A stretch of DNA of 10,708 nt from a virus (lineage: Duplodnaviria > Heunggongvirae > Uroviricota > Caudoviricetes), in IMG/VR virus record IMGVR_UViG_2585427768_000002, positions 1-10,708 of that record; one strand, 5' to 3'. Under the pieces are notes generated by a model, which saw only the letters and a list, made by a program, of their open reading frames with translations, was not told where the DNA came from and ran no database searches. Below, piece by piece: positions 1 to 6,254 of this stretch (position 1 is its first letter; every line of letters begins with the position of its first letter). Made by a program: the position numbers and the translations under genes.

Positions 1-82
1 CTGGCAACATTAACAGGCGTTCCATTGCTGGAATTGCACGTTCCGCCACCTCACGCAGTGCCTGGTAATTAATTTCGCTCAC
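1..82 (-). CDS. hypothetical prophage protein, N-terminal fragment (gene continues beyond window start); paralog of the next gene
   Basis: Reverse complement of 1..82 reads GTG AGC GAA ATT AAT TAC CAG... = MSEINYQALREVAERAIPAMERLLMLP. SD AAGGAGG lies 6 nt upstream of the GTG at 82..80. The GTG overlaps the TGA stop of the upstream gene (GTGA). N-terminus resembles that of the 79..759 gene (MSKIDYQELREAAEQ). Confidence 0.5.
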   Translation of the reverse strand, partial: MSEINYQALREVAERAIPAMERLLMLP

Positions 83-759
83 TGATTGCCTCCTTTGCGA
101 AGCTGGGCAGCAAAGTCAACTAACCACTCAGTCATTTCAACCTTCCCTACCAGGTCTGAACCAGGGTGCATACAGCAATCACTCTGCGCCGCTTTGAAAT
201 CCTTACACTCATATTCTTGGGCCACCAGATTTTTTGCAGCTTCTATAGCAGCATCCACCCCCTGCGCCCGGACTTCAGCCAGGAAAGCATCAGTGGTTGG
301 CGTTTCAGGTATCTGTCTCCTCATCCGTTCTATTGCATGATTGAACCCGAAGTCTTCCGCGAGAGATACGTCATCCATATTGTCATTGTCATCCTCAATA
401 TCCCGTGATTTTGGAATTGCAGACTTTATTCCCGCATTCTCAGCAGCCAGCGCCGCGCACTTGGCCTCAAGAGCGGCAACCACTTCCTGATGGTCTTTGT
501 ACTTAACGTATGAGCCGGAGATGTCATCACCTTCGGTGTTTAGCCATGCGTCATTGCAATTCACTGCGTAGGTTCTGATGCTGATGCTCTCCCGCCCCTG
601 ACAGACGCCAGGCCAGTCAATAAAGTATCCGCAATGCCTACCCTCAGACGTGCGCGCAGGATAAATGCCGTTATGACCCGGCAAAATATATGCTACCCAT
701 TCATCTTGCGTTGCCTGTTCCGCCGCCTCGCGCAGTTCTTGATAGTCAATCTTGCTCAC
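79..759 (-). CDS. hypothetical prophage protein (about 226 aa), coiled-coil-like central region
   Basis: ORF track lists 79..792, but the ATG at 792 has no SD and overlaps the upstream gene. GTG at 759..757 is preceded by AAGGAGG (6 nt spacing) and overlaps the upstream TGA stop as GTGA, so I set the start there. C-terminus ends ...LRKGGNQ. Confidence 0.6.
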   Translation of the reverse strand: MSKIDYQELREAAEQATQDEWVAYILPGHNGIYPARTSEGRHCGYFIDWPGVCQGRESISIRTYAVNCNDAWLNTEGDDISGSYVKYKDHQEVVAALEAKCAALAAENAGIKSAIPKSRDIEDDNDNMDDVSLAEDFGFNHAIERMRRQIPETPTTDAFLAEVRAQGVDAAIEAAKNLVAQEYECKDFKAAQSDCCMHPGSDLVGKVEMTEWLVDFAAQLRKGGNQ

Positions 760-1106
760 TGGTTGCCTCCTTTGCGAATCTGTTCCGCCCATTCTTCTAG
801 GGATTTCTCCGCATATTCACCGGACAGGCCATCAATCGGGTGTGGTTCATTAGCCAACTCTTCTTTCGCTGACAGAATCATGCGTGTAACGTCGAAAACT
901 TCACGTAAAGACTTATTGATAAATCCGTGATTGAAAGCCGCAGCAAGACGGCTTGCGGTATAGTTAATACCCTCGTTGCGAGCCTCAGCACGTACTTCAT
1001 CGAATTTACGCACCAGATACTCAGCATTTGTTTCATTCACTTTCAGATCTCGTGGTACACATTTCCCGCGAAGAAACCCTTCCATTTCGAAAACATTCAT
1101 GCGCAT
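756..1106 (-). CDS. hypothetical prophage protein (116 aa)
   Basis: Complete ORF. SD GGAG (plus-strand CTCC at 1115-1118) sits 8 nt upstream of ATG 1106..1104. C-terminus ...IRKGGNQ matches the C-terminus of the downstream paralog. Its stop overlaps the next gene's GTG start. Confidence 0.6.
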   Translation of the reverse strand: MRMNVFEMEGFLRGKCVPRDLKVNETNAEYLVRKFDEVRAEARNEGINYTASRLAAAFNHGFINKSLREVFDVTRMILSAKEELANEPHPIDGLSGEYAEKSLEEWAEQIRKGGNQ

Positions 1107-1143
1107 TTGCGTAACTCCGATAACTCGTTAAAACGTTCCATAA

Positions 1144-1341
1144 ACATCCCGTAACCGGATCCGCGATCTGGACAACTATAACAAGGCGCTGTTTGACGCC
1201 CTGACCCACGCGGGTGTGTGGGAAGACGACAGTCAGGTGAAAAGAATGCTGGTGGAGTGGGGACCGGTTATCCCGGAGGGGAAGGTCGAGATCACTATCA
1301 GTAAGTACGAAAAAGCGAGTTGCAAATTAGCAACTCGGTAA
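1144..1341 (+). pseudogene. rusA: rusA (Holliday junction resolvase) 3' remnant, N-terminally truncated
   Basis: Frame from 1144 to TAA at 1339-1341 translates TSRNRIRDLDNYNKALFDALTHAGVWEDDSQVKRMLVEWGPVIPEGKVEITISKYEK... This matches the recalled RusA C-terminal catalytic region (RDLDN...DALT.AG.W.DD.QV). No start codon or N-terminal half is present; a stop lies at 1141-1143 and the minus-strand gene 756..1106 occupies the upstream space. Confidence 0.55.
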
Positions 1342-1386
1342 CGGAATTGAGCAACACCCTAAATTTGGGTATTACCTCGTTAAAGA

Positions 1387-1406
1387 TACTGTATTTATGA
1401 ACAGTG
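1387..1406. promoter_or_regulatory. LexA-box-like palindrome (candidate SOS operator) upstream of the KilA-N gene
   Basis: Sequence taCTGTatttatgaACAGtg at 1387-1406 has the CTGT-N8-ACAG architecture with an AT-rich spacer, like the E. coli SOS box consensus TACTGTATATATATACAGTA. A possible -35 TTGATA (1412-1417) and -10 TAAGTT (1435-1440) lie just downstream. Confidence 0.45.
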
Positions 1407-1503
1407 TATCCTTGATAACTATTAAAAATCGCAGTAAGTTCATCCTGCATCAACGAAAAGGGAGTGCAGTCCCGCTCGTGGATAAAAATTTGTGGAGAAA
1501 CCA

Positions 1504-2319
1504 ATGAATCAGTTGCTTGTAATTGATGGCGTTTCTGTGCGCCAGTACTTCGAATCTAACTACTGTCTTAACGACCTTCAGAAAGCTGCTCTTCTTGCCG
1601 CTGGTGAGAATCGCTCCTCCCGTTCGCTGGAAGTTCACGAGTTTATGCGTCGTCCTGAAACGAAGGCTCTTGTGGAATTATTGGAAGAAGAAACTACGGG
1701 AGATTCCCGTAGTATTCCTGTCATCACCATTCAGGGGCGCAATGGTGGGACGTATGTCTGTAAAGAGCTGGTCTATGCATATGCAATGTGGATCAGCCCG
1801 GCATTCAGCTTAAAAGTGATACGTACTTTTGATGCGCTTCATAATTCATCACCAGAAGAAACCACATCCGACAAAATTAAATCCGGGGTCATTCTGCTTG
1901 AATCAGCAGCAAAGACTCTAAATCTGTCAAACTCCTCGAAACTTGGTGCATACCAGAAATTATCAAAGGTAGCTGGTCTTCCTGAACTTATGCCGATCTA
2001 TGCCATTGATGCACCTGCTGATGCGCCAGATGGTTCAAGCCGCCCTACGCTGTCGCTGAGTGCACTGCTGAAGCAGTATGGTATCCGCCTGACGGCTAAT
2101 CAGGCATATCACCAGATGGCGAAGCTGGGGATCGTTGAACAACGCGAACGATACAGCCGTACCGCGATTAACAACATCAAAAAATTCTGGTCGCTGACCG
2201 CGAAAGGCTGCATGTTCGGCAAGAACATCACCAGTCCTGCAAATCCGCGCGAGACGCAGCCGCATTTCTTCGAATCCCGATTTCCTGAGCTGTTAAAGCT
2301 GCTCGATACCGTTCATTGA
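1504..2319 (+). CDS. KilA-N domain protein (phage antirepressor/Roi-like DNA-binding protein)
   Basis: ORF track 1492..2319 begins at a GTG. ATG at 1504 has SD GGAG 7 nt upstream, so I set the start there. N-terminal region GRNGGTYVCKELVYAYAMWISPAFSLKVIRTFD matches the KilA-N core motif (G-T-[WY]-V-x-x-x-L-x-x-x-[YF]-A-x-W-[IL]-S-P-x-F) as recalled. Confidence 0.7.
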   Translation: MNQLLVIDGVSVRQYFESNYCLNDLQKAALLAAGENRSSRSLEVHEFMRRPETKALVELLEEETTGDSRSIPVITIQGRNGGTYVCKELVYAYAMWISPAFSLKVIRTFDALHNSSPEETTSDKIKSGVILLESAAKTLNLSNSSKLGAYQKLSKVAGLPELMPIYAIDAPADAPDGSSRPTLSLSALLKQYGIRLTANQAYHQMAKLGIVEQRERYSRTAINNIKKFWSLTAKGCMFGKNITSPANPRETQPHFFESRFPELLKLLDTVH

Positions 2320-2326
2320 GGTGACT

Positions 2327-3316
2327 GTGAGAGCACTACTGACCCCTGAAATTGCCCCGCGTATGGGGATCGTATTGTTCAGGCCAGGTTCAGAGCTGAT
2401 GCCCCTGTTTATGCAGGGGCGTGTCCTGCTGGAGCCTGAGCCGGAGCGTTATTCATCTTTCGCCAGTGGTGCCGTTCCGGCGGCATCACAACCGCTGGCG
2501 GATGATCCTGCCGTTCGGGCCGTGTTCCGCCATGAGGCAGTGATCCGTCGTGCTGGTGGCGTGGAATGTCTTGAAAGCTGGTTACTTCGTGAAAAAGGCT
2601 GCCAGTGGCCTCATTCCGGATGGCACAGCGAGAACATGACCACAATGCGACACGCTCCGGGTGCAATCCGTCTGTGCTGGCACTGCGATAACCAGCTGCG
2701 CGATCAGTTCACGGAACGGCTGGAATCAATGGCAACGGATAACTGTGCCCGCTGGGTGTTGTCTGTTGTGCGTCGGGATCTCGGTTTTGATGACAGTCAC
2801 GTTGTGACAATGCCGGAACTGTGCTGGTGGCTGATTCGTAATGACCTGGCGGATGCCTTACCGGAAAGTGCAGCCCGTAAGGCACTGAGATTACCGAAGC
2901 CTGTTGTGCCGTCTGTCACCCGGGAAAGTGACCTTGTGCCTTCGGTTCCTGCCACCAGCATCATCCAGGATAAAGCGAAAAAGGTGCTGGCGCTGAAAGT
3001 GGATCCGGAGTCGCCGGAGTCTTTTATGTTACGCCCCAAACGTCGCCGCTGGGTTAATGAAAAGTACACGCGCTGGGTTAAGACGCAGCCGTGTGCATGT
3101 TGTGGAAAGCCTGCTGATGATCCCCACCATCTGATAGGCCACGGTCAGGGGGGAATGGGTACAAAAGCGCATGATCTCTTTGTGTTGCCTTTGTGCAGAA
3201 AGCATCACGACGAGCTGCATGCGGATACCGTGGCATTTGAAGAGAAGTATGGCTCCCAGCTGGAGTTGATATTTCGTTTTATCGATCGTGCGCTGGCAAT
3301 TGGTGTGCTGGCCTGA
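2327..3316 (+). CDS. DUF968-like prophage protein with C-terminal HNH-like His/Cys motif (YdfU-like)
   Basis: ORF track 2321..3316. GTG at 2327 is 5 nt after SD GAGG (2318-2321), so it is the likelier start; 2321 remains possible. C-terminus CACCGKPADDPHHLIGHGQGGMGTKAHDLFVLPLCRKHHDELH is HNH-like. A second Cys/His cluster (CQWPH...CWHCDN) lies mid-protein. Family assignment is from memory of E. coli prophage DUF968 proteins. Confidence 0.65.
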   Translation: MRALLTPEIAPRMGIVLFRPGSELMPLFMQGRVLLEPEPERYSSFASGAVPAASQPLADDPAVRAVFRHEAVIRRAGGVECLESWLLREKGCQWPHSGWHSENMTTMRHAPGAIRLCWHCDNQLRDQFTERLESMATDNCARWVLSVVRRDLGFDDSHVVTMPELCWWLIRNDLADALPESAARKALRLPKPVVPSVTRESDLVPSVPATSIIQDKAKKVLALKVDPESPESFMLRPKRRRWVNEKYTRWVKTQPCACCGKPADDPHHLIGHGQGGMGTKAHDLFVLPLCRKHHDELHADTVAFEEKYGSQLELIFRFIDRALAIGVLA

Positions 3317-3333
3317 TTTTGTGGAGAAAGTTG

Positions 3334-3690
3334 ATGCGTGATATGTATGAAGTAATGGATCGTTGGGGAGCTTGGGCTGCTTCAGACAATAGCGGAGTGG
3401 ACTGGCAGCCGATAGCGGCTGGTTTCAAGGGACTTTTACCTCATGGCAAAAAGTCACGGATTCAGTGTGATGATGACGAAGGCATCATGATAGACAGTTG
3501 TGTGGCTCGGTTGAGAAGGTATAAACCAGAGGAATATGAGCTCATCATCGCCCACTTTGTTATCGGTATCTCATTACGTACTATTGCGAAGAAGAGAAAA
3601 TGCTCTGATGGCACAATTAGGAAGGAACTGCAAACTGCAATGGGGTTTGTTGACGGCTGTTTAGCAATGTTAGCTTATAGTATGGCATAA
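3334..3690 (+). CDS. late-gene antiterminator Q, short QuuD/phage-82-like type
   Basis: ATG at 3334 has SD GGAG 7 nt upstream (track start 3319 is a TTG). Protein MRDMYEVMDRWGAWAASDNSGVDWQPIAAGFKGL... resembles the short (about 120-130 aa) Q antiterminators of DLP12-type prophages as recalled. Position after the nin-region genes and before the tRNA/late region fits. Confidence 0.75.
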   Translation: MRDMYEVMDRWGAWAASDNSGVDWQPIAAGFKGLLPHGKKSRIQCDDDEGIMIDSCVARLRRYKPEEYELIIAHFVIGISLRTIAKKRKCSDGTIRKELQTAMGFVDGCLAMLAYSMA

Positions 3691-4884
3691 AAAATAAAAT
3701 AGATTTACTGCCGATTTTTCAAAAAAGACTGGGAACTGTTTATATCCAACGTAAATAAGGCCTCCATAAAACATGGCTGATGCGAGATATTTAACAGTTC
3801 TCATCCTTTTTTTAGCTTTATCAATCAAACCTGTAATGCTACTCTTAATACTATCTGCATTATCTTTGATTTCTTTATTTTCTTCAAACTTTAAATACTT
3901 ATCGAAAGCGGACTCCACTCGAGAACGTAAGTTGTCGAATGTTTCATTGAATATCTCAATAGAAATGTAATTGACTTTTTTTATCATCCAAAGTCCTGCG
4001 ATAATCAATATTGCTTCGGTTGTTTCATTAGCCTTCACTAAGCCACCAGCAGCTATTAATGCACCGGGAATAGTCAATGCTTTTGTCTGATTAGATGATA
4101 TGAATTCGTTAATTTTACTCGTGAACTCAAGATTTTTCTCATCGAGTTCGTTAAGAATTTTATTTACAGAAAACCTCTTTGTGTAAATCTCATATAGTTC
4201 ATCATATTTTTTCCTGACGAGTTCAGTAGAGTTAAGCAAGTCAAAGAAATTGAACGTACCATTTGCTTTAAATACTTCGTTTATGGCTGAGCGTATAACG
4301 AGCTTGCGCTCGCTTTTGTGTAAATCATTGATTTTTATTGTGTCGAGAAGCTCCTTTATAATTTCATATTTAAGAGACGAGTTCGATAAGCGATTAATCT
4401 CGCTATATTGTAAAAAATGCGTGAGTTCGACTGTATAACTTTTGTCTTCATTGGTGAAAAATAAGACAGAGCAGTCACTGTTATGATGATCAGCAATTAA
4501 TGAAAGGATATCTTTCCACATAAAGAAAATATGGATTTTTTCGATGCTTTCATTCTTAGAAGTAGGGAGTATTAACGGCGTTCCGATGATATAATTTTTC
4601 GGAAGAGCGTTTTGGGTGTTTACTCTAGACCAAAAAGACTCAACATTCTCATAAATTATAGCGTCATCCCAAGATGAAGCTTGGCGATCTAGCCAAATTT
4701 CATTATTTTCGATGCAGGTTGTTGCCTTTTTATAACCTATAGATTGTAACAGTCTAATTATTTCAGAACTATTTACAATAACAATGCTTTCTTCAAGACT
4801 TATGACAGTGTAGTAGCCCTCAACTCTGCTTGAGGCTCCGTTAATAATCTGCGCTAATCTTGATAAGTCATCAGCAATTGTCAT
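3670..4884 (-). CDS. hypothetical membrane-associated protein (404 aa): soluble N-terminal domain plus C-terminal hydrophobic helices; candidate effector of a two-gene module
   Basis: Complete ORF. ATG at 4884..4882 lies 2 nt after the stop of the upstream gene (TAA-TA-ATG), indicating translational coupling. Hydrophobic segments at about aa 268-303 (ALTIPGALIAAGGLV...AILIIAGLWMI) and about aa 365-400 (YLASAMFYGGLIYVGY...). Very AT-rich, with AGA and ATA codons. No family recognised. Confidence 0.75.
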   Translation of the reverse strand: MTIADDLSRLAQIINGASSRVEGYYTVISLEESIVIVNSSEIIRLLQSIGYKKATTCIENNEIWLDRQASSWDDAIIYENVESFWSRVNTQNALPKNYIIGTPLILPTSKNESIEKIHIFFMWKDILSLIADHHNSDCSVLFFTNEDKSYTVELTHFLQYSEINRLSNSSLKYEIIKELLDTIKINDLHKSERKLVIRSAINEVFKANGTFNFFDLLNSTELVRKKYDELYEIYTKRFSVNKILNELDEKNLEFTSKINEFISSNQTKALTIPGALIAAGGLVKANETTEAILIIAGLWMIKKVNYISIEIFNETFDNLRSRVESAFDKYLKFEENKEIKDNADSIKSSITGLIDKAKKRMRTVKYLASAMFYGGLIYVGYKQFPVFFEKSAVNLFYFLCHTIS

Positions 4885-4886
4885 TA

Positions 4887-6062
4887 TTAGCTGTCTCTAT
4901 ATCTTTTGAGTTCATCATAATTTGCCTGACTCAATTTTATCACAATTTCGCATTTGTTGTCAGTGAGAATTACAGGCTTATTTGACTTTTCGTCTCCAAT
5001 AGCTCCACGCATTATTTTCAACTTAAAATTATTGTCGTTATCTGCCACTTCAATTGTAAGCGCGCTTTCAGCTGCTTTAGGAGTTGGTTCAAATTGAGGG
5101 TCAATCTGGAAACCATTAAGATTAACAAAATCGACAAACGTTCCCTTACATTTGTGTGAATCAGTCAGGCATGAGTCAATTATTTTTGAAATATCCTCTA
5201 TCTTAACGGACTTATTTCCGTGTTTATCTTTTGATTTTTTTTCCAGTAAGGATTTAACTTCATTGTCAATAGTATCACGCAGTACACGACCGAGTGAGTT
5301 TTTACTAGCAAAAATATCTATAGCACTGAATAATTGCTGAATGCTTCTTTTATTGTCCGAATCATGTCGGCAACCTAATGAGTCTTTGAAAAAATCGCTT
5401 TTAGATTTACCTTGCAAGAAATGTACATATGAGTCACCCTTGTTTTCTGGATAACTGGCTTCGAATAAAGTTAAATCGAACATCGCAGCCTGCCGTAAGG
5501 CATCGGTATTAATTGGATTTAATCTTGTTGGGGTCAACTTATCCGAATCAAAGTCATAGGCGCTTTGTTTATCAACCATTACGATTAGAAGTTTCCCCAA
5601 ATCCTCTGGTTCGGTAGACTTATAGTGGATGAAAACAACGCTCCCCCCCTGAAGTTGGGCAACTCTCGATTCGTTATTAGCATTATGTTTAAGCTTCTCT
5701 ATTATAGCTCTAGATAAATCAATGAATTCATTATTTTTATTAATGTATTTTTTTAGGATCGTAGGAATGGATGAAGGGTTGTGATCTGAGTCTAGGAAGT
5801 TATGAAATTTGTTTTTTCGGCTAAATTTTTTCTCAATTCTGGTTATGAATTCAGATGTGACTTCATTTTTTAGATCCCAAACTTCACCTAATCGATAATC
5901 AAATGCTCTTGAATCATTTTTTTCAAGATTTGCTGTTACAGCACCAATAGGAAAGTACGATTGTTTGCCCAGCACTACAACATGAGGCGTGGCACCGCAT
6001 TTATCGCAAGCTACAGTTGGGTCGTCAAGAACATTGCCACATTCTAAACAAGTTATATCCAT
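4887..6062 (-). CDS. zinc-ribbon protein with NdpA/YejK-like (NA37 family) nucleoid-associated domain (391 aa)
   Basis: Complete ORF. ATG at 6062..6060 with SD GGGA about 7 nt upstream. N-terminal C5-x2-C8-x10-C19-x2-C22 zinc ribbon. Residues 139-147 GGSVVFIHY, 212-220 YVHFLQGKS and SDFFKDSLG align with recalled YejK motifs ([31 protein letters not shown]). AT-rich. Confidence 0.8.
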   Translation of the reverse strand: MDITCLECGNVLDDPTVACDKCGATPHVVVLGKQSYFPIGAVTANLEKNDSRAFDYRLGEVWDLKNEVTSEFITRIEKKFSRKNKFHNFLDSDHNPSSIPTILKKYINKNNEFIDLSRAIIEKLKHNANNESRVAQLQGGSVVFIHYKSTEPEDLGKLLIVMVDKQSAYDFDSDKLTPTRLNPINTDALRQAAMFDLTLFEASYPENKGDSYVHFLQGKSKSDFFKDSLGCRHDSDNKRSIQQLFSAIDIFASKNSLGRVLRDTIDNEVKSLLEKKSKDKHGNKSVKIEDISKIIDSCLTDSHKCKGTFVDFVNLNGFQIDPQFEPTPKAAESALTIEVADNDNNFKLKIMRGAIGDEKSNKPVILTDNKCEIVIKLSQANYDELKRYRDS

Positions 6063-6087
6063 TATATATCCCGAATTATAAGAATGA

Positions 6088-6115
6088 ATTTTTATGTGGC
6101 TGAAAATTCTATCAA
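6088..6115 (-). promoter_or_regulatory. candidate sigma70 promoter for the minus-strand two-gene operon
   Basis: On the minus strand: TTGATA (plus coords 6115..6110), 16-nt spacer, AAAAAT (6093..6088). A TATAAT hexamer (6080..6075) lies directly before the SD. Hexamers identified by eye only. Confidence 0.25.
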
Positions 6116-6182
6116 AACACTAACGCGTACGCAAAAAGTATTGTATTGTGTTAAGAGTGGTTACTTCGCCACACAACTTAAC

Positions 6183-6204
6183 CCCGCCACTGAGCGGGTT
6201 TTTT
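6183..6204 (+). terminator. intrinsic terminator-like hairpin (plus strand)
   Basis: Stem CCCGC (6183-6187) / GCGGG (6194-6198), 6-nt loop, followed by TTTTTT (6199-6204). No plus-strand gene lies immediately upstream. Confidence 0.5.
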
Positions 6205-6254
6205 GTACCTGTAAACTTGGTGCAGTACAGTAAACACGCTGGTGGTCGTGAATA

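Follow-up and report, generated by a model that had tools for sequence, protein, structure and literature searches.

A short gene-boundary island in the Ea22-like array of a defective Escherichia coli prophage that probably serves translational coupling and cassette exchange

In the viral DNA of IMG/VR record IMGVR_UViG_2585427768_000002 (positions 1–10,708; this whole stretch of 10,708 nucleotides (nt) is called the window) three small genes, here named A, B, and C, are joined at two places by a repeated sequence in which the last codons of one gene contain the Shine–Dalgarno (SD) sequence of the next one. We suggest that the joints are copies of a conserved gene-boundary island of ∼75 nt which probably has two jobs, translational coupling and the provision of short homology for the in-register exchange of gene cassettes. 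The island comprises the codons for the protein tail ...A-A-Q-L/I-R-K-G-G-N-Q, the SD AAGGAGG, a 6-nt spacer, the overlapping stop/start GTGA, and ∼14 leader codons (M-S-K/E-I-D/N-Y-Q-x-L-R-E-x-A-E). In its first job a ribosome which ends the upstream gene, or which is recruited by the strong SD, would initiate the next gene at the GTG. In its second job crossing-over inside the island by general or phage recombinases of the Red/RecT/Erf type would allow entire gene bodies to be exchanged, deleted, or duplicated in register while the reading frame and the coupling are preserved.

A first-pass annotation of the window had described these genes as tandem paralogs joined by a repeated GTGA cassette. 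This description has to be corrected in that all three genes lie on the minus strand and only the first 27 codons of gene A are inside the window. Gene C (756–1106, minus strand; 116 amino acids (aa), ATG start) ends with ...WAEQIRKGGNQ-TGA and gene B (79–759, minus strand; 226 aa, GTG at 759–757) ends with ...FAAQLRKGGNQ-TGA (stop at 81–79), so that the reported RKGGNQ-stop ends are found in both, and of gene A only the 5′ end is present (1–82, minus strand, starting from the GTG at 82–80). One copy of the island lies between genes C and B (711–799, minus strand) and contains the tail codons, the SD at 772–766, the spacer CAACCA, the GTGA at 759–756, and the leader codons. The other copy lies between genes B and A (34–122, minus strand) with the same order of elements, the SD being at 95–89, the spacer being CAATCA, and the GTGA being at 82–79. 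The two are direct copies at a distance of 677 nt and enclose gene B. The 25 of 28 identical nucleotides noted before are readily seen when the minus-strand 28-mers are compared (gcttcgcaaaggaggcaatcagtgagcg at 103–76 and gattcgcaaaggaggcaaccagtgagca at 780–753); the ungapped repeat is in fact longer and extends over 89 nt with 76% identity (34–122 versus 711–799). The 22-mer GCAAAGGAGGCAAYCAGTGAGC is found in exactly two minus-strand copies in the window (77–98 and 754–775), and this core had no match in any of 200 dinucleotide-preserving shuffles.

Both joints have the layout of coupled genes: the genes are on the same strand, stop and start overlap (GTG 759–757 on TGA 758–756 and GTG 82–80 on TGA 81–79), and the SD is placed inside the upstream open reading frame (ORF) within the range of 5–9 nt upstream of the start. 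The SD is a perfect 7-nt complement of the 3′ end of the 16S rRNA, is written in the Lys-Gly-Gly codons, and is separated at both joints by 6 nt from the GTG. Neither promoter nor terminator scans yielded anything at either junction, and Rfam matches were absent within 1–1106. Predicted RNA folding at the two junctions is not significant and not common to both copies (z-scores +0.84 and −1.39).

These features also bear on the idea that the joint is a recoding site, at which a −1 shift at CAG-TGA, stimulated by AAGGAGG, would join C with B and B with A into polyproteins. A −1 shift at CAG|TGA would indeed reach the GTG in the downstream frame, and SD-like elements are generally known to stimulate frameshifting in prfB and dnaX. 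However, there is no slippery sequence, as neither AAC-CAG nor AAT-CAG allows re-pairing in the −1 frame, the z-scores predict no stimulatory structure, and the distance of 6 nt between SD and GTG is that of an initiation site. We therefore give this explanation next to no credence. The joint was likewise rejected as a programmed −1/+1 frameshift site, since there is no re-pairing at AAC/AAT-CAG-TGA and no stable downstream structure.

The joint is not confined to the window. Viral contigs of IMG/VR were retrieved with the exact 20-mer AAAGGAGGCAAYCAGTGAGC (at least 120 contigs) and by additional variant scans; all counts for such contigs and their contexts given here refer to the matches listed. 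In this way at least 154 junctions in at least 140 contigs were found. When the flanking gene bodies were clustered at 70% identity, at least 22 upstream and at least 25 downstream clusters occurred in at least 66 combinations. More than one partner was seen for 13 upstream and for 8 downstream clusters, one of the latter having 15 partners, and 18 of the downstream genes are not Ea22-like. Over 108 distinct contexts the column conservation is high only from about −30 to +45 around the GTG and is at background outside, that is, a short nucleotide island at a gene boundary is surrounded by non-homologous flanks in different phages. In addition, 6555 pairs of distinct contexts were compared by ungapped alignment over 200 nt of each flank, with less than 45% identity counted as unrelated. 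At least 97% identity upstream together with an unrelated downstream flank was found in 86 pairs and the reverse in 122 pairs, and only 28 pairs have 97% identity or more in both flanks.

The same one-sided homology is seen for the joint between genes C and B of the window. Among the matches listed at least 10 contigs have only the upstream flank in common with it (100% in L030), one contig has only the downstream flank in common (100% in L011), and none has both. In the E. coli genomes L123 and L124 the homology to the window stops at 781/782, which is the upstream edge of the island, and in many other BLAST matches at 772–778 or 754–756. A 60-mer centered on the joint is present in 855 of 5426 complete E. 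coli genomes at up to six places per genome. The proposal that the joint is a modular one has thus held up with respect to its recurrence in related genomes, the variety of the flanks, and the breakpoints in relatives; that the junction itself causes the shuffling is what we infer from these patterns. Salmonella phage records match positions 1–306 of the window. Among species-representative genomes (one per species) the exact 20-mer is restricted to Escherichia apart from contaminant and chance matches. Outside this genus there were a single phage-like contig, which is a contaminant, and three matches by chance in metagenome-assembled genomes (MAGs) that are unrelated (high-GC or other); these were rejected and give no evidence of spread. 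The contig from a MAG named 'uncultured Sutterella sp.' (CAJKAP010000027.1, L127) has 1374 nt, is 99% identical to an E. coli prophage, and is probably a binning contaminant.

How might such a pattern arise? The breakpoints suggest that recombination takes place at the island, which would offer enough homology because it is nearly identical between otherwise unrelated gene bodies. Red recombineering works with homologies of a few tens of nucleotides. Both general and phage recombinases act on short and diverged homology (PMC3945230).

An outcome resembling cassette assortment could also be brought about at a dedicated site for a site-specific recombinase, as in an integron-like system. This appears exceedingly improbable to us, as no inverted repeat, attC-like structure, or significant folding is found at the junctions, there is no dedicated recombinase beside the array (only the integrase and excisionase of the prophage, at the attachment end, are nearby), and the homology tracts end at various places within ∼75 nt and not at one point. 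With neither a structured site nor a dedicated recombinase in the array, the array was not assigned to the integron-like systems.

A more serious alternative is that the repeat is a mere by-product. Tandem Ea22-type paralogs would have kept their terminal peptides for functional reasons and would need an SD, the mosaicism would have arisen by illegitimate recombination followed by selection (the Hendrix model), and the island would promote nothing. The leader and the tail do show the mark of purifying selection at the protein level, with invariant residues and synonymous changes. Furthermore, the N-terminal segment of lambda Ea22 is a recognized part of the protein (PMC10834534) and the illegitimate-recombination model is an accepted alternative (PMC3945230). 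On the contrary, the identical tail, SD, spacer, and start are also found on unrelated upstream proteins (clusters U3, U4, and U5) and in front of downstream genes which are not Ea22-like, and fixation of the spacer CAAYCA or of the Asn-Gln codons is not expected from selection for an SD. In addition, 208 of the context pairs listed combine one flank of at least 97% identity with an unrelated opposite flank, and the switch from one to the other falls within the island. Such a switch is a prediction of crossing-over within common homology and therefore argues against a by-product. As it accounts less well than an island with two jobs for a spacer and tail which are identical on unrelated proteins, we regard this explanation as unlikely, although it deserves to be kept in mind.

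The codons of the island give a hint how it is conserved. In the leader, the residues I4, Y6, L9, R10, and A13 show no or almost no replacement while synonymous codons are freely used for them; in the tail, all four Ala codons occur at Ala-9 and Ala-10. For the first Gly codon, which forms the core of the SD, a synonymous GGB is found in one viral contig versus at least 120 with GGA, but at the loci retrieved with the 20-mer GGA is fixed by the search pattern and its invariance there is not evidence. The variant scans revealed AAG as the Lys codon in two contigs and variation at the second Gly codon, which does not belong to the SD core, in 13 contigs. Information on conservation comes only from the flanks and from the scans for synonymous variants. 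Unrelated proteins have the same spacer and Asn-Gln codons, and since this identity is poorly explained by selection at the protein or RNA level, common descent by recombination is suggested. In our best reading all three processes act at once: the leader and tail would be under protein-level selection, the SD core would be under RNA-level selection, and the island would have been spread by recombination.

Several points weigh against an island with these two jobs. Both the translational and the recombinational role are read from patterns in the sequence, and the breakpoint pattern covers the RKGGNQ joint alone among the junctions of the operon. The invariance of the core from −14 to +5 is there by construction, because the contigs were retrieved with an exact 20-mer. 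The contexts and codon counts are not phylogenetically independent and are indicative only, and some distant homology has been scored as unrelated because the flanks were compared without gaps. Tandem bracketing as in the window is uncommon, as 6 of the 140 contigs listed have two copies. Finally, genes A–C may not be expressed in this window, from which the pL side has been deleted (see below).

Gene B could also start at an in-frame ATG inside gene C (790–792, minus strand), which would result in a protein of 237 aa with the N-terminus MGGTDSQRRQPV... and an overlap of 37 nt with gene C, and the GTGA would be incidental. This ATG opens the longest ORF (79–792), and ATG is the commoner start codon. 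Nevertheless, we judge it not to be the start and consider this possibility very unlikely. No SD is found in front of it, the Pfam profile on gene B begins at residue 2, the Ser after the GTG, and PGAP annotates the GTG with the same coordinates in the RefSeq entry of E. coli TOE17 (NZ_CP069093, L001). The reference annotation of lambda ea22 has the same GTG, and ea22 of both lambda and 933W begins with GTGAGCGAAATTAA..., the GTG overlapping the TGA of an upstream orf73-type ORF. Moreover, gene A does not have an alternative start, as GTG-82 is its first possible start because of an in-frame TGA at 118–116, and between this TGA and GTG-82 there is no ATG, GTG, or TTG in the gene A frame. Gene-B-like genes behind other upstream genes (L090, L102, L116, and L119) carry an in-frame TAG nine codons upstream of the GTG. 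ATG-792 is therefore not conserved and is present here only because gene C happens to adjoin gene B.

The wider comparison points in the same direction. In 78 of the 114 distinct contexts among the matches listed, no possible start codon comes before the GTG. When 50 Ea22-type N-termini were located by protein motif (from 45 viral contigs plus the two of the window; 8 of them have a different upstream tail), all 50 start codons were GTG overlapping TGA with GGAGG 6 nt upstream. Thus the earlier claim that the KGG codons double as SD of a gene whose GTG overlaps the TGA agrees with Pfam, with PGAP, and with these starts.

The genes themselves are related in part only. Genes A and B are Ead/Ea22-like proteins which are alike through the N-terminal leader (VSKIDYQELREAAEQ in gene B and VSEINYQALREVAER in gene A), so that the motif said to be shared by two genes is present. 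The resemblance to Ea22-like prophage proteins, previously put forward with reserve, is now substantiated by Pfam Ead_Ea22 (PF13935/IPR025153), which matches gene B with 97.3 bits (E-value 1.5e-27, profile positions 1–138 on residues 2–163) and the 27-codon fragment of gene A with 34.7 bits, the gathering cut-off being 27 bits. Gene B also matches phrog_368 over its full length. As to architecture, it has the N-terminal segment common to Ea22 proteins and the profile match covers residues 2–163.

Gene C has no Pfam match and is a hybrid, as judged from profile comparisons. Its residues 1–42 match the first 42 positions of phrog_583, and an identical copy is called 'YfdS family' by PGAP; its residues 36–116 match the C-terminal module of the Ea22-type phrog_614 and phrog_368, and gene B matches the same profile region. 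The seam between the N-terminal part (981–1106) and the remainder (756–1001) coincides with a break in homology to the relatives L122 and L123 at ∼995–1001; at this seam L122 has 256 nt and L123 has 659 nt, the latter with three small genes, either as a replacement or as an insertion. By BLASTP genes B and C match in the last 32 aa only, and the wider C-terminal module is visible only at profile level. Tandem paralogy therefore stands for A and B by their leader and for B and C by the C-terminal module, but not for gene C as a whole, which combines a YfdS N-terminus with an Ea22-type C-terminal module and is not a full paralog. For genes B and C a sequence search of the PDB gave no meaningful match, the C-terminal domain of lambda Ea22 included, NCBIfam yielded only sub-threshold noise, and the PADLOC defense models found nothing.

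The leader of gene A alone, 27 residues, passes the Ead_Ea22 cut-off (34.7 versus 27 bits). As this fragment reaches the gathering score and gene B shares only the first 21 residues with lambda Ea22, a portable leader can by itself earn the family label. Annotations such as 'ead/Ea22-like' may thus lump proteins with unrelated bodies.

Genes A–C belong to the leftward early accessory operon ('ea' or exo-xis type) of a lambda-like E. coli prophage, and the host element is a defective E. coli prophage. In the intact relative TOE17 all genes are leftward in the order int, xis ... Ea22-like, Ea22-like (gene B), gene C, yfdR, yfdQ, yfdP, repressor, and in L124 the array is downstream of Rad52-family, ssb, and anti-RecBCD genes; the array is hence located in the leftward early operon between the recombination genes and xis/int. 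The annotation of several genomes shows overlaps of 4 nt throughout the neighboring genes, and the GTGA joint is therefore the customary arrangement here.

In the window the operon is truncated. A 3′ remnant of yfdR (5′-deoxynucleotidase; 1097–1153, minus strand) shares 10 nt with the start of gene C. In intact relatives yfdR is upstream of gene C, and in the window the rest of yfdR is deleted. The homology to the TOE17-type prophage ends at 1153 with the break at 1152/1153, and from 1152 on the window follows, with 100% identity, the nin/Q/late region of that prophage type, beginning in the last third of rusA. Both sides match this prophage type with 100% identity in different genomes, and the 1152/1153 joint is found in none of the 5426 complete E. 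coli genomes. The likely event is an internal deletion that removed the immunity and replication region, by which the array would have lost its normal upstream promoter region. Within 1097–1341 the minus-strand yfdR remnant adjoins a plus-strand RusA fragment (Pfam RusA positions 79–123 of 124).

Elsewhere the window carries a two-gene cargo between the antiterminator Q and the tRNAs (3670–6062, minus strand). One gene codes for a 404-aa protein without a Pfam or PADLOC match and the other for a 391-aa NA37 (YejK-like nucleoid-associated) protein with an N-terminal Cys-rich stretch; in an identical copy recent PGAP names are 'anti-phage protein' and 'nucleoid-associated anti-phage protein'. 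The region 7403–10102 contains a trio of tRNAs, namely CAT (Met according to ARAGORN, Ile according to PGAP), Arg-TCG, and Arg-TCT, then the STnc100 small RNA (7728–7918) and after it an esterase with the domains DUF1737/SASA/DUF6645 (NanS-p type). This is the layout of Stx phages, but there are no stx genes between the tRNAs and the esterase. The 100% match to genomes of O104:H4 type and NCCP genomes ends at 10539 and the last 169 nt (10540–10708) differ.

Coupling by stop/start overlap and homology-driven mosaicism are textbook or published concepts. The joint does not differ in principle from other stop/start overlaps (ATGA, GTGA, TAATG), with which it shares the 4-nt overlap, the SD in the upstream ORF at optimal spacing, and the operon-wide occurrence; what is notable is that the same SD-bearing tail is found on unrelated upstream proteins. 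A published description of the RKGGNQ joint was not found, and a full-text literature search for KGGNQ gave nothing on phages.

Among the known systems ea22 of lambda and 933W is closest. Their start GTGAGCGAAATTAA... likewise has the GTG on the upstream TGA and the SD inside the last codons of the upstream gene, and the leader of lambda Ea22, a protein of the same Pfam family, is identical to gene B in 14 of 21 positions. On the other hand, lambda Ea22 and gene B are unrelated by BLASTP beyond residue 21, the upstream partner in lambda is another one with the tail ...KQRGSK, and lambda has a single ea22 gene and no tandem array. In lambda Ea22 a short N-terminal segment is combined with a coiled coil in the center and a C-terminal domain which is variable (PMC10834534), and ea22 genes are mosaic with a common N-terminal segment and unrelated C-terminal domains (PMC10834534; PMC7093339).

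Classical Ea22 proteins end with K/R-G-E and not with RKGGNQ, and this common tail has been described as of 'unknown significance' (PMC7093339). Its nucleotides, AAAGGAGAGTGA in lambda (L147, 1048–1060) and AGAGGTGAGTAATG in 933W (L149, 4100–4115), are SD-like with an overlapping stop/start. In 933W an unannotated ORF of ∼50 codons starts at the ATG of this tail; in lambda the ORF behind the tail GTG has only five codons and the motif there may be a relic. This comparison of sequences suggests that the conserved C-terminal tails of Ea22 proteins, K/R-G-E included, would be set largely by the ribosome-binding site of the next gene.

Short sequences called boundary or linker sequences at module junctions of lambdoid phages are known from Clark et al. 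2001 (HK620) and Martinsohn 2008, as cited in PMC3945230. As far as they are described in that citing paper, they are similar in that a short identical island at a gene boundary is surrounded by unrelated modules and that a role as limited homology in recombination has been proposed, and the RKGGNQ island differs from them in being coding on both sides and in carrying translation-initiation signals. Integron cassettes have in common with the array promoterless small genes in one orientation under a common promoter. The array is nevertheless not a member of this class, as it lacks an attC, an integron integrase, and a fixed point of crossover.

One may go a step further and see in the island a maintained in-frame 'adaptor' and in the Ea22-like array an open cassette-exchange locus, in which the bodies between ...AAQLRKGGNQ, GTGA, and MSKIDYQALREAAE... 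are swappable. Co-resident prophages would then swap bodies by recombinases of the Red/RecT/Erf type with frame and expression kept, which would amount to an integron-like function on short homology. We mention this as a speculation which is rather doubtful. The two-job island bears more directly on the debate whether lambdoid mosaicism is due to limited homology or to illegitimate recombination, in that one island of 75 nt joins at least 66 gene combinations and the switches at its flanks are sharp and look recent (at least 97% identity on one side only). Both principles as well as the mosaicism of ea22 are already known, and the RKGGNQ joint and the explanation of the K/R-G-E tail by an SD may be new. 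Compared with these systems the array is a clear but ordinary example of the coupling and swapping of small genes in lambda-like phages, and it does not overturn the current understanding.

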